Source: a virus
Lineage: Duplodnaviria; Heunggongvirae; Uroviricota; Caudoviricetes
Reading direction: 5' to 3' (one strand)
Length of the DNA: 51,153 bases
Virus record (IMG/VR): IMGVR_UViG_2939521961_000005
Below are positions 12,001 through 18,000 of the stretch, piece by piece (position 1 is the first letter of the stretch; the number at the start of each line of letters is the position of its first letter). Made by a program: the position numbers.

Positions 12001-15000
12001 CGTTCTGGTTTACAATCCATCCGTCAGCCTGAACAACTGGCACCTGCTGCGCCAGCAGAGAAAACAGATGGCGCACGATACCAAATTTTACAATTCGGAT
12101 AACTCTGCCGCCCCTGCCAGCAGGCACGGGCGGCGTTCCCGCACTTTCAAATCTGACTGGTTCCAGCATCCCCCATGCACTGAAGAACAGGCCGAGTGGC
12201 TAATTCAGTGCTACCGCAGACACGGATACGAGATTAAGAAAGCCCTCAGCCTCGATTATCGTCACTGGATAATCTCCGTCAGGCTTCCTTACTCCGAACG
12301 ACCACCGCGTCCGTCCCGCACATTCCAGCAACGCATCTGGAGGTAACGTGCGGGTATTACTTCGACCTGTTCTGGTACCGGAACTCGGGCTGGTGATCGT
12401 TAAGCCGGGCCGTGAATCCATGCCGGTATTCCACAATACCCGGGTACTGGTGGAGCCGGAACCGAAAAGCATGCGTAATCTGCCGTCCGGGGTCGTTCCT
12501 GCCGTTCGCCAGCCGCTGGCGGAGGATAAATCATTACTGCCATTTTTCAGCGACGAACGAGTGATTCGTGCTGCTGGTGGCGCTGGCGCATTGTCTGACT
12601 GGTTACTGCGCCATGTTAAATCCTGCCAGTGGCCACACGGTGATTATCACCACAGTGAAACCGTCATTCACCGTTATGGTACCGGCGCAATGGTGTTGTG
12701 CTGGCACTGCGACAACCAGCTGCGCGACCAGACCTCCGAATCACTCGGGCAACTTGCTCACCAAAACCTGTCTGCATGGATGATTGACGTCATACGCCAT
12801 GCAATGAATGGCTCGCAGGAACGGGAATTATCGCTGGCTGAATTATCCTGGTGGGCGGTCCGCAATCAGGTGGCGGACGCGCTACCGGAAGCGGTATTAC
12901 GTCGTTCGCTGGGGTTGCGTGCGGAAAAAATCCGCTCAATGTACCGTGAAAGCGACATCGTACCGGGAGAGCAGACCGCCACCATCATACTGAAGCAGCG
13001 CACAAAAAATCTTGCGCCGCTGCCTCACGCCCACCAGCAAAACCCGCCACAGGAAAAGACGGTGGTCAGCATTGCCGTTGATCCCGAGTCACCGGCTCAG
13101 TATCTCCAGCGCCAGAAATCACAACGGGAAGAGATGCCTGTATACACGCGCTGGGTAAAAACGCAGAAATGCATGACGTGTGGCAATCAGGCAGATGATC
13201 CGCATCACATCATTGGTCATGGACTGGGAGGGATGGGAACAAAGGCTGATGATTTGTTTGTTATTCCGCTGTGCCGTAAATGCCATAGCGAACTACACGC
13301 CGGGGTAAAAGATTTTGAAGAAAAACACGGCAGCCAGCTGTTGTTGCTGATTCGTTTTTTAATGCACGCGAGAAATTCGGGTGTTCTGAAGTGGAAAGCA
13401 TAAATGACTGAACGCATAGAATTTGTTTTGCCTTACCCGCCAACGGTGAACACTTACTGGCGTCGTCGTGGCAGCACATATTTTGTATCAAAAGCCGGGG
13501 AGCGTTATCGCCGGGCAGTGGCGCTTATTGTTCGCCAGCAGCGGCTGAAATTAAGCCTGTCCGGAAGGTTGGCAATAAAAATTATTGCAGAACCACCGGA
13601 TAAGCGCCGCCGTGACCTGGACAATATCCTGAAAGCACCACTGGATGCGTTGACGCATGCCGGACTTCTCATAGACGACGAGCAGTTTGATGAAATCAAT
13701 ATTGTGCGCGGTCAGCTCGTTCCTGGTGGGCGGCTGGGCGTGAAGATTTACAAAATTGAGAGTGAGTGATCGTAAATATGATATACCCGGAAATTACAGG
13801 CAAAAGCGGCGAGCATTTACGTCTAAAAACGCTGGAAGCCGTCTGGATCCAGGGGAAATTACGGATGTGGGGGCGTTGGTCGTATATAGGTGGTAGCAAA
13901 ACAGGAAATATGTTCAATCAGTTGCTGGCATCCAAAAAACTGACAAAAACCGCAATCAATGAAGCCCTGCGTAGAATCAGGGAGTCAGGGATTGATAAAC
14001 CAGAGCTGGAAGCATTCTTGCGAGAGATGATCGCTGGCAGACAGAAGAGCTGGTTGTCTCACTGTACTGATGCAGAGGCGTTACGCATTGATGGGGTGAT
14101 AAGTAAAGCGCTTGCACGTTATCCTGGATTGATTGATATCCTGCGGCAAAGATACGAAGGGCGGGGGATGAGTAAACGCAAAATGGCTGAATTGTTGAAT
14201 GAGGTTCACCCTGAGTGGTGCTATGCAACATGCCGCAATCGTATAGATATGTGGCTGAGAATAGCTGAGTTTATTCTGTATCCACTGATGCGAGATGCAT
14301 TTTCTTTTACTGACGCTTAGAATCTGGAGGGCGTTTGTTGTTGCACGAAGAGGATTTTTGGCTGGTAGTAAGGTTTGTGCAGTTTTAGAAAAAAAGCTTG
14401 TATTTTTAGCCATAAACTGTTTCAATCCAGCTACGCTTCGCAAAGCTGTACCGCGAGGCGAATAGCAGACATGGACACCTGAAAGAACCCGCTTTATGCG
14501 GGTTTTTTTATGCCTGAAAAACGGCACAGAACATTAAACGCGCTGGTAGTTGTGAATACTGGTCTTTCAGCTTGCTGGCTTTTTCGACAAGAGGTATTGG
14601 TATGTCACGTTAACCAGAAAAGGGAAAAAGGCATGCTAAAACAGCAGGATATGACCGAAACCGCCAGAGTGGTGTTTAATGAATTAAGCGTCACCGAACC
14701 GGCGACCGTCGGGGAAATTGCGCAGAATACTTACCTTTCACGCGAACGCTGCCAGTTAATACTGACTCAGCTTGTTATGGCGGGTCTGGCAGATTATCAG
14801 TTCGGTTGTTACAGACGCCTTCCGCAGTGAAGGCTTTTTAATTTGTGGTAATGGGCGGCTGGTGGGTGTTAGCGGCACCTGCCAGCCATCTGCTCATGCG
14901 TTGGGGTCACAAGCAAACCTCAGGCCCATCTGCTTTGCGCAAAAGCGGCATGAGCCTATCAGAGAAGTGCTTATTGATCTATGATTAATACTGTAAAAAT

Positions 15001-18000
15001 ATCCAGTTGTGAGTTAATCAACGCTGATTGCCTGGAATTTATCCAGACCTTACCGGAAAACTCTGTCGATCTGATAGTCACAGACCCGCCATACTTTAAA
15101 GTGAAGCCCGAGGGCTGGGATAACCAGTGGGAGGGCGACGATGATTACCTGAAATGGCTGGACCAGTGTCTGGCGCAGTTCTGGCGGGTACTGAAGCCTG
15201 CCGGAAGTCTTTACCTGTTCTGTGGTCATCGCCTGGCATCTGACACCGAAATCATGATGCGTGAGCGCTTTAATGTGCTGAACCACATTATCTGGGCGAA
15301 GCCGTCCGGACGCTGGAACGGGTGCAATAAGGAAAGTCTGCGGGCGTATTTTCCGGCAACAGAGCGCATTCTGTTTGCAGAACATTATCAGGGACCGTAT
15401 CGCCCGAAAGATGATGGCTATGTGGAGCAGGGGCGCGAGCTAAAACAGCACGTCATGGCCCCGCTGATTTCTTACTTTCGTGATGCGCGTAAATCACTGG
15501 GAATAACGTCAAAACAGATAGCGGAAGCCACCGGAAAGAAAAACATGGCTTCGCACTGGTTTGGTATCAGTCAGTGGCAGTTACCGAACGAGGGTGATTA
15601 CAACAAATTGCAGGCGTTGTTTGCGCGTGTTGCGGCAGAAAAACATCAGCGCGGGGAACTGGAAAAGCCACACCACCAGCTGGTCAGCACATACAGTGAG
15701 CTGAACCGGCAGTATACGGAACTGCTGAGTGAATATAAAAATTTGCGGCGGTATTTCGGTGTGACGGCGCAGGTTCCGTACACCGATGTCTGGACGCATA
15801 AACCGGTGCAGTACTATCCAGGGAAACATCCGTGCGAAAAACCGGCAGAAATGCTGCAGCAGATAATCAACGCGAGCAGTCGTCCGGGAGACCTGGTTGC
15901 AGATTTTTTTATGGGTTCAGGTTCAACGGTAAAAGCGGCGATGGCACTGGGGCGTTGTGCGATTGGTGTTGAGCTGGAGACCGGACGCTTTGAACAGACA
16001 GTCAGGGAAGTTCAGGATTTAATCGTTTGAAACGGATGAGATTGCAGAATTAATTACGCACCATTATTATTCTGCTCCCGGCCCTTTAGCTCAGTGGTGA
16101 GAGCGAGCGACTCATAATCGCCAGGTCGCTGGTTCAAATCCAGCAAGGGCCACCATCACAAACCGCCATTAGCTTATCAGGAAGAGCAGACGACACCATA
16201 ACAGGGTTGTTGGTGCGGGGGCGGGTCCCCGATGGCGGTCCATTATCGGTATTCTGCGTTGTTAGCTCAGCCGGACAGAGCAATTGCCTTCTAAGCAATC
16301 GGTCAGTGGTTCGACTCCACTACAACGCGCCACACTTATTTTCCAGGCTCGCTTCGGCGGGCCTTTTTTGTATCTGCGCCACGCCCGGCGCATATCAACC
16401 ACAGAGCCTTTCGGGGGTGAGCTTACGGAGTGGTCAGTGTGACTTTCTCTGTGGGCAGATCGCTCCCGGGCGTTGGCTCACCCACCCAAAGGAACGTCAC
16501 GATGTTTGGAATCTTCAAAAAGAAAACCCGCAGAGCGGCAGCGGAAATTAAAAAGTTTGAGAAACGCGATCTGGCACAGGCGGTGATTAACGCTGCATAC
16601 CTGGTGGCCTATGCAGATGGTGAATGCGAGGCATCCGAGAAAGCGAAGATCGAACAGGTCTTACGTAATCAGCCTGCGTTGTCTGCGTTTACCTCGGAAA
16701 TTAATGCGATTAGCGCAACTATTATCGGTCAGCTGGATACCAATTTTAAAATTGGTCGTCGTGCCGCGTTACGCGAGATTGAGGATGTGAAACACGATAC
16801 GCGTGAAGCGGAAGATGTGCTGGATGTGGCGGTGGCCATTGCGGAGGCAGACGGCGAAATTGAGCCGGAAGAGCGCAAGGTGCTGGAAGAGATTGCCGGT
16901 GTTCTGGGTCTTCGTCTGGAGAATCACCTGTGACGGTAAAACTGCGCCTGGCTGTGGCTGCACTCCTGCTGTTTCTGGTGGTGATGGTGGATTTCACCAG
17001 CAGAATCATGTCGGTGCTGGCGGATGGGGTGCTGGTCTGCGGCATTGTGGTATTGCTGTGGCCGGTGATAAAAAGAAACAGCCTGCATAATGCTTGGTTT
17101 TTTTGTTTGCTGTTTATTAAAAACACTTCTGCATGGTGAATCCCCCTGTGCGGAGGGGCGATCAGCAACCAGGTATATGGGATAATCGCGGATTCAGGTG
17201 CTGATACTGAATTCACCGGGAGGCACCCGGCACCATACAAGAAAAAGAATGTGCATGCAAACATGCCCCTCTCCGGAGGGGCTTTTTTATGGGTAAAAAA
17301 TGCCCGAATGGGTTCGGGCAATAGCATGAGATACTGATATTGTTGTGTTGTTATCGTGTGGATTTTAACCAGGGTTTATCAGGCTGCGCAACTGCGTGGC
17401 CTTTTTTCATTTCTTGGGCTGTAGTCCCCGTGTGTCATTCAGGCTTCCGGACTACAGCCCACTCCATATCTGATTTAATACACTATCCCGGCCGGGAGGA
17501 ATAATGACATTTAAACATTATGATGTTGTCAGGGCGGCGTCGCCGTCAGACCTTGCGGAAAAGCTGACACACAAACTGAAAGAGGGCTGGCAGCCGTTTG
17601 GTAGTCCGGTGGCCATAACCCCTTATACCCTGATGCAGGCGATTACAGCAGAAGGTGATGTGGTGGTCAGTGGTGCAACTGAGCCGGATTGGTACTACGT
17701 CATCGTACTGGCCGGGCAGTCCAATGCCATGGCTTACGGTGAAGGGCTTCCGCTGCCGGATTCATACGATGCTCCGGATCCGCGCATTAAACAGCTGGCG
17801 CGCCGCAGTACAGTGACGCCGGGTGGGGCTGCCTGCAGATATAACGATATTATTCCGGCCGACCACTGCCTGCATGATGTGCAGGATATGAGTACGCTGA
17901 ATCATCCGAAGGCAGACCTGAGCAAAGGGCAGTACGGCTGTGTCGGCCAGGGCTTACATATTGCCAAAAAACTGCTTCCGTATATCCCGAATAACGCGGG

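Follow-up and report, generated by a model that had tools for sequence, protein, structure and literature searches.

An M.EcoGII-family methyltransferase gene and its conserved leader RNA in the late region of a lambdoid prophage

The 51,153-nucleotide (nt) stretch of viral DNA analyzed here (Caudoviricetes; IMG/VR record IMGVR_UViG_2939521961_000005), referred to below as the window, carries on its plus strand an open reading frame (ORF) at 14981-16030 (ATG start, TGA stop at 16028-16030) that encodes a DNA methyltransferase of 349 amino acids (aa). We consider it likely that this protein is an orthologue of M.EcoGII, that it is a SAM-dependent enzyme methylating adenines at N6 without site specificity, and that it is switched on by a Q-like antiterminator at prophage induction, with blanket N6-methyladenine (m6A) shielding the phage DNA from restriction. 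From the present analysis, this reading draws on gene identity, intact motifs, purifying selection, gene order and an upstream terminator, and from the M.EcoGII literature it draws on non-specific activity, silence in the lysogen and toxicity. The methyltransferase is an ordinary member of an already characterized prophage family, and so of an already known kind. The one item worth follow-up is a structured leader RNA directly upstream of the gene, which is in no database listing.

Protein family and target specificity

The protein matches the Pfam family PF01555 (N6_N4_Mtase) over residues 29-340 (E = 2.6e-44; 152.2 bits against a cutoff of 26.7 bits). Motif IV, DPPY (aa 35-38, nt 15083-15094), is followed by a central target recognition domain (TRD; aa 160-237, nt 15458-15691) and then by motif I, FFMGSG, of the form FxGxG (aa 309-314, nt 15905-15922), all on the plus strand. 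This order, from motif IV through the TRD to motif I, is that of the beta class. Membership of the Dam-like alpha class was rejected, as it needs FxGxG toward the N terminus and DPPY toward the C terminus, the reverse of the arrangement found here. The nearest solved structures by sequence are all beta-class N6-adenine or N4-cytosine DNA methyltransferases (M.BceJIV, M.RsrI, CcrM and M.MboIIA), and the DPPY and FxGxG motifs align with those of M.BceJIV and M.RsrI. Every residue that is invariant across 43 homologues is kept. The gene therefore encodes an intact beta-class amino-methyltransferase, as the initial annotation of this DNA had proposed from the DPPY motif, and its catalytic motifs are not degenerate.

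Alignment with M.EcoGII of Escherichia coli O104:H4 C227-11 extends over the full length without gaps, with 319 of 349 residues identical (91.4%). The reference used was GenBank EGT69837.1, equivalent to WP_000935520.1 and located at NZ_CP011331.1:1474103-1475152 on the C227-11 chromosome; this gene was tied to M.EcoGII through the SUPREM supplementary table, with which it agrees save at three garbled spots in the machine-read copy. M.EcoGII was described by Murray et al. (2018) as a beta-class enzyme of 349 aa from a C227-11 prophage that methylates adenine in any context, and its in vitro substrates include double-stranded DNA, single-stranded DNA, RNA and DNA:RNA hybrids (PMC5778455). It belongs to "a very large family" in E. 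coli prophages, and a very similar enzyme is found in phage 1720a-02 (PMC5778455). A full-text literature search with the N-terminal string of the window protein returned no match.

Of the 30 positions at which the window protein departs from M.EcoGII, 13 lie in the TRD, 10 in the catalytic core and 7 in the linkers. The ratio of nonsynonymous to synonymous substitution rates (dN/dS) against M.EcoGII is 0.12 for the whole gene and 0.19 for the TRD, which indicates that the gene, including the TRD, is under purifying rather than diversifying selection. Engineered and reconstructed relatives help to frame this degree of divergence. Anc291 and SUPREM are approximately 84% and 70% identical to M.EcoGII, respectively, and are thus both more distant from it than the window protein, which is itself approximately 86% identical to Anc291 and 72% to SUPREM. 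Every reconstructed ancestor characterized by Ochiai et al. is active on both DNA and RNA, with no motif seen for those that were sequenced (PMC11551740). Likewise, homologues in O111 Shiga toxin-producing E. coli, with 92-94% aa similarity to M.EcoGI and M.EcoGII, are entered as "nonspecific" in a published table, and O111 lysogens showed no additional methylation motif (PMC6602927).

Could the window protein instead be a sequence-specific orphan enzyme, directed by its diverged TRD to a defined target and serving either in regulation or as a shield from a single restriction system? Substitutions do concentrate in the 78-residue TRD, where nearly half of them fall, so that a shifted preference is possible. 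Moreover, the segment at 15400-15700, which covers a linker and the TRD, is the most divergent part of the cassette (78-87% nt identity to a related locus, L003, compared with 94-97% in the flanks), and family members appear mosaic in alignment. Pipelines at NCBI also name family members "site-specific DNA-methyltransferase". However, that label is a generic pipeline name, and variants with far more TRD substitutions stay non-site-specific (PMC11551740). Homologues at a comparable distance are among those listed as nonspecific in the O111 study, the TRD ratio given above is that of purifying selection, and M.PflMI, the nearest relative known to recognize a specific site, shares only 27% identity (PMC11551740). 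Hence, we regard a site-specific enzyme as very unlikely. Because the window protein is 91.4% identical to M.EcoGII, shares its gene neighborhood and is bracketed by non-site-specific variants, homology allows its target specificity to be assigned, subject to the usual caveat, as predicted non-specific adenine methylation. On this point our reading departs from the initial annotation, in which specificity was held to be beyond inference from the sequence.

Late-region setting and proposed role at induction

The methyltransferase gene lies downstream of a Q-like late antiterminator gene and of an intrinsic terminator, both on the plus strand. The Q-like gene (13766-14320; RefSeq start at 13778) encodes a protein that matches Pfam DUF1133 (E = 4.7e-101), Phage_antitermQ (28.6 bits against a cutoff of 26) and phrog_753, "anti-termination protein Q-like" (E = 8e-79). 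The tR'-like terminator (14480-14510) consists of a 13-bp stem, a 5-nt loop and a U-tract, with a predicted fold of -18.2 kcal/mol (z = -6.1; 0 of 200 shuffled sequences fold as well), and phage SfV carries an annotated terminator at the equivalent place. Similarity to loci with other types of Q gene starts at approximately 14500, that is, at the terminator; therefore, the Q/terminator module ends there, which is consistent with a unit of Q gene, late promoter and terminator joined to a distinct methyltransferase cassette. When the Q/terminator module was compared with phage records by megablast, no close relative emerged. The order of Q gene, terminator, small ORF, methyltransferase and lysis genes recurs in SfV, mEp460, vB_EcoM-720R4, phiNP, yong2 and phiP27.

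Genes encoding DUF968, RusA, the Q-like protein and a 65-aa ORF precede the methyltransferase on the same strand, and TerB, DUF3927, SASA esterase, holin and lysozyme genes follow the tRNAs that lie downstream of it. The eight proteins scanned yielded no candidate for an endonuclease partner: PADLOC matched the methyltransferase alone, and a Pfam scan of its neighbors gave no restriction-enzyme domain. A Type II restriction-modification system was therefore rejected, as no cognate endonuclease gene lies next to the methyltransferase. The gene is an orphan, as already annotated, and is the first long gene of a lambdoid prophage late operon, in the position between the Q terminator and the tRNAs that had been assigned to it.

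The tRNAs themselves begin at 16080, and both are encoded on the plus strand. The first (16080-16155) has a CAT anticodon and is called as tRNA-Met by ARAGORN and as tRNA-Ile by RefSeq, being of the ileZ type as in Stx phages; the second (16256-16332) was identified in the tRNA scan as tRNA-Arg (TCT) and is followed on the same strand by a terminator-like hairpin (16345-16364; -14.6 kcal/mol, z = -3.5). The same pair, CAT and Arg-TCT, occurs in phiP27, and most relatives add an Arg-TCG tRNA in between. In nearly all close relatives the first tRNA begins approximately 50 nt past the methyltransferase stop codon, and the same spacing is seen at nearly every locus of Stx-type prophages. Together with the activity of M.EcoGII on RNA and DNA:RNA hybrids in vitro (PMC5778455), this linkage is what could be expected if the selected substrate were RNA, either phage late mRNA or the adjacent tRNAs, rather than DNA. 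Yet the cassettes of SfV, mEp460, vB_EcoM-720R4, phiNP and yong2 have no tRNAs and continue directly with the holin gene. Since the same cassette occurs without tRNAs, tRNA linkage is not obligatory, and on this ground a tRNA-directed role for the enzyme was rejected. The RNA activity of M.EcoGII is also far below its DNA activity and was deemed promiscuous by the authors (PMC11551740). An RNA substrate as the object of selection thus seems to us extremely improbable.

With DNA as the probable substrate, we propose the following course of events. In the lysogen, the terminator (14480-14510) would halt late-promoter transcription and so keep the methyltransferase silent. Such silence is needed because blanket adenine methylation harms the cell; M.EcoGII is unexpressed in its lysogen and is deleterious under constitutive expression (PMC5778455), and a 2025 review describes M.EcoGII and M.EcoGI as silent in lysogens and probably turned on at induction (PMC12707154), a switch that Murray et al. 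also proposed (PMC5778455). Upon induction, the Q-like antiterminator would let RNA polymerase pass the terminator, turning the methyltransferase on, and the leader RNA and the 65-aa ORF may then fine-tune the enzyme. The enzyme would methylate most adenines of the replicating phage DNA ahead of packaging, and the packaged DNA would resist many restriction enzymes that are blocked by m6A, with anti-restriction as the putative selected function. The protection against host restriction suggested in the initial annotation agrees with what has been proposed in the literature for the M.EcoGII family.

Several observations weigh against this proposal, in addition to the concentration of substitutions in the TRD noted above. 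A consensus promoter scan from the Q gene to the terminator found no plus-strand late promoter, so that Q-dependence rests on position and synteny. Literature searches recovered only reviews and the original paper; they turned up no report of a phage with an M.EcoGII-family gene packaging hypermethylated DNA, and none of a gain in plating efficiency from such a gene. An AlphaFold model of the protein is of low confidence, with an average pLDDT (predicted local distance difference test) of 65; it was built from a shallow alignment in which every sequence is at least 75% identical, and we use it as weak support at most. Its top Foldseek matches in the PDB are all beta-class or Type III Mod enzymes (46 of 46). 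In and around the TRD, the model places helices at residues 147-173, 177-184, 190-194, 204-223 and 231-254 (pLDDT 57-84); in the published AlphaFold model for the M.EcoGII family, a helical TRD (aa 160-237) is flanked by two long linkers.

The state of the prophage is a further point of this kind. As far as approximately position 16270, the window matches a lambdoid prophage of E. coli O26:H11 11368 at every base; the counterpart gene in that prophage (WP_000611213.1) carries the annotation "DNA-methyltransferase". The prophage copy looks defective: the late region (approximately 22258-23520) carries an inserted IS3-family transposase gene with rve domains that the O26 11368 copy lacks, an IS66 element splits the tail-fiber gene (46415-49030), and the O26 reference marks the portal region (29423-32007) as frameshifted. 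Because of these lesions, the methyltransferase may be useless in its host, and the gene could be a silent passenger, kept intact through recent acquisition of the cassette and functionless in a prophage that cannot finish the lytic cycle. Nonetheless, the ORF, leader, small ORF and terminator are all intact, and the identical allele is present in many O26/O111-type genomes (170 records at ≥99% identity). Defective prophages can also still undergo induction, recombine or be complemented by other lambdoid prophages, many of which reside in strains of this kind. Moreover, this explanation, which we consider unlikely, bears on the usefulness of the gene in its host and not on the identity of the protein as a member of the M.EcoGII family.

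Leader RNA and small ORF upstream of the methyltransferase

The interval between the terminator and the methyltransferase contains two further elements, the 65-aa ORF and a leader of approximately 150 nt, both of which the initial annotation had passed over. The leader RNA (14836-14980, plus strand) is predicted from covariation to fold into a three-way junction of helices P0, P1 and P2 followed by a hairpin, P3. P0 (14851-14856 with 14924-14929) closes the junction, from which P1 (14857-14868 with 14876-14887) and P2 (14890-14898 with 14908-14916) extend, and P3 (14932-14936 with 14942-14946) lies downstream.

Support for the fold comes from 50 leaders that were aligned with MAFFT, an alignment not fitted to the structure. 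These derive from Escherichia, Shigella phage SfV, Salmonella, Citrobacter, Klebsiella, Enterobacter, Kluyvera, Mixta, Buttiauxella, Rosenbergiella, Hafnia, Lonsdalea, Yersinia, Providencia and others. Standard pairs are formed in 85.7% of the cells of this alignment, compared with 24-41% when the partners are slid, and 14 pairs have changed on both sides, compared with 3-6 for slid partners and 5.7 for shuffled alignments (0 of 500 shuffles reached the observed number). In an alignment of 59 sequences fitted with a covariance model, 86.6% of cells are paired and 16 pairs are compensatory, including 8 of the 12 in P1. RNAalifold independently recovers P0, P1 and part of P2, compensatory changes span more than 20 enterobacterial genera, and G-U pairs favor the plus strand. 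Taken together, these comparative data show, at the level of sequence, that the leader fold is conserved.

The leader is also found solely next to M.EcoGII-family genes. It occurs once per locus and always ends at the methyltransferase ATG, and its model has a single match in the window (128.6 bits). In 96 of 96 viral contigs that extend far enough downstream, the methyltransferase comes after the P1 motif, at a spacing of 90-93 nt in 95 of them. Between genera, the leader is 0.57-0.95 identical, well above the 0.35-0.81 seen at third codon positions in the methyltransferase. A near-invariant GATC (a Dam site; 14976-14979) lies one base 5' of the methyltransferase ATG, and no recognizable Shine-Dalgarno sequence precedes the start codon. 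A scan of 13700-17600 against Rfam 15 (E ≤ 0.1) left the leader unmatched; otherwise it returned the two tRNAs, the small RNAs STnc100 and AgvB/AsxR, and a minus-strand match to Plastid-ycf2 on the first tRNA that is sub-threshold (36.3 bits against a cutoff of 65.7). A literature search likewise found no paper containing the leader sequence.

Other explanations for the conservation of the leader were considered. Protein coding was rejected on three grounds: single-nucleotide indels separate the genera, in-frame stop codons occur 1 and 9 codons upstream of the methyltransferase ATG, and the changes are paired and compensatory rather than located at third codon positions. A DNA palindrome or operator is less likely than an RNA structure, given the nested helices, the plus-strand G-U pairs and the retention of the fold where no small ORF is detected. 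Pairing of the P2 loop (GGUCA) with the UGAUC that precedes the AUG was seen in the single-sequence fold and lacks covariation support. In more distant homologues from Xenorhabdus and Photorhabdus (L139-L169; 64-69% aa identity), the upstream spacer is approximately 100 nt long; these spacers keep a P1-like hairpin alone, and the leader model gives no match to them.

The 65-aa ORF (14633-14830, plus strand) matches phrog_331 (E = 1.4e-37) and has a weak match to TrmB (E = 0.0077), and its phiP27 counterpart is named "TrmB family transcriptional regulator" in RefSeq. The C-terminal half of the protein (CQLILTQLVMAGL) is conserved and the N-terminal half is variable. Of 78 species-representative loci, 57 have the ORF approximately 150 nt upstream of the methyltransferase, and SfV, mEp460, phiNP and yong2 show the same spacing. 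The fixed spacing is thus seen in phages of E. coli, Shigella, Citrobacter, Klebsiella and Hafnia. Loci without the small ORF have a canonical terminator directly 5' of the leader. In the window, a weak terminator-like hairpin with a U-tract was found by the terminator scan (14817-14834, plus strand) and contains the stop codon of the ORF; it is not significant alone (-8.9 kcal/mol, z = -1.8), and inspection by eye shows a counterpart in other genera.

The 65-aa ORF may encode a winged-helix partner of the methyltransferase. We think that the leader serves specifically to control a toxic enzyme, its function being a guess. More specifically, the leader, with its start region that lacks a Shine-Dalgarno sequence and carries the GATC, could be a hitherto undescribed cis-regulatory RNA dedicated to M.EcoGII-family genes that, jointly with the 65-aa ORF, gates translation or stability of the methyltransferase, whose untimely production would be toxic; to this proposal we attach about equal belief and doubt. 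Possible mechanisms include autogenous binding by the methyltransferase, M.EcoGII being active on RNA, or binding by the 65-aa protein.

Prophage background and comparison with known systems

Homologues of the methyltransferase are common, being present in 1,939 of 5,426 complete E. coli genomes (about a third). Downstream of the tRNAs in the window, the TerB-family and DUF3927 genes (16502-17139, plus strand; Pfam matches) form an insert that is missing from the loci nearest to M.EcoGII. Two Rfam matches to small RNAs score well above threshold, STnc100 (17102-17294, plus strand; 141.5 bits) and AgvB, a prophage anti-GcvB small RNA (17295-17356, minus strand; 96.5 bits); there is also a weaker, overlapping AsxR-like match. 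At the right end of the window, an ORF on the minus strand (49792-51153) corresponds to espK in the O26 11368 annotation, a type III secretion effector gene, and the prophage is therefore of the effector-carrying "exchangeable effector locus" type.

The methyltransferase itself adds one allele to a widespread family, which is already on the market as a chromatin-footprinting reagent, and is little new. The gain for annotation is that the name "site-specific DNA-methyltransferase" misleads for the M.EcoGII family, for which homology provides the specificity. The leader RNA and its partner ORF offer a concrete way into the question of how an enzyme toxic to the cell stays inactive before lysis, and could matter for heterologous expression of M.EcoGII.

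The closest characterized system is M.EcoGII of C227-11, which shares with the window gene the length of 349 aa, the beta-class motif order and the location in a prophage late region. The two loci also share the small ORF family, the leader RNA, the tRNA-Ile/Arg cluster, the SASA esterase and the lysis genes; in C227-11, the order is DUF968, Q, a 67-aa ORF, methyltransferase, tRNA-Ile, two tRNA-Arg, SASA esterase, holin and lysozyme. They differ in that the upstream small ORF is only approximately 50% identical, the Q gene is of another type, and C227-11 has three tRNAs compared with two in the window. The methyltransferase genes of phiP27 (L24), 1720a-02 and the Stx2a-, Stx2c- and Stx2d-converting phages, with 82-89% nt identity, lie in the same cassette. 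In phiP27 and Stx-type phages, however, stx genes follow the tRNAs; the phiP27 cassette precedes stx2e, and the TerB and DUF3927 genes of the window sit where phiP27 has stx2e A and B. More distant relatives (72-81% aa identity) include SfV orf48, mEp460 gp53, the gene named "dam" in Citrobacter phage phiNP and the methyltransferase of Hafnia phage yong2. These share the order of Q gene, terminator, small ORF, 150-nt leader and methyltransferase, but differ from the window in lacking tRNAs and in having the holin gene directly after the methyltransferase.

Among unrelated systems, the Mom protein of phage Mu, whose product is N6-carbamoylmethyl-adenine, differs from M.EcoGII in both chemistry and fold. 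Mom and other toxic phage DNA-modifying enzymes made only at induction are grouped in reviews with M.EcoGII, as being silent in lysogens, toxic upon expression and broadly protective against restriction (PMC12707154). Promiscuous alpha-class adenine methyltransferases of phages and Dam-like phage enzymes are similar to the window protein in being orphan phage N6-adenine methyltransferases, but differ from it in that FxGxG precedes DPPY and in that the Dam types are specific for GATC (PMC5778455).

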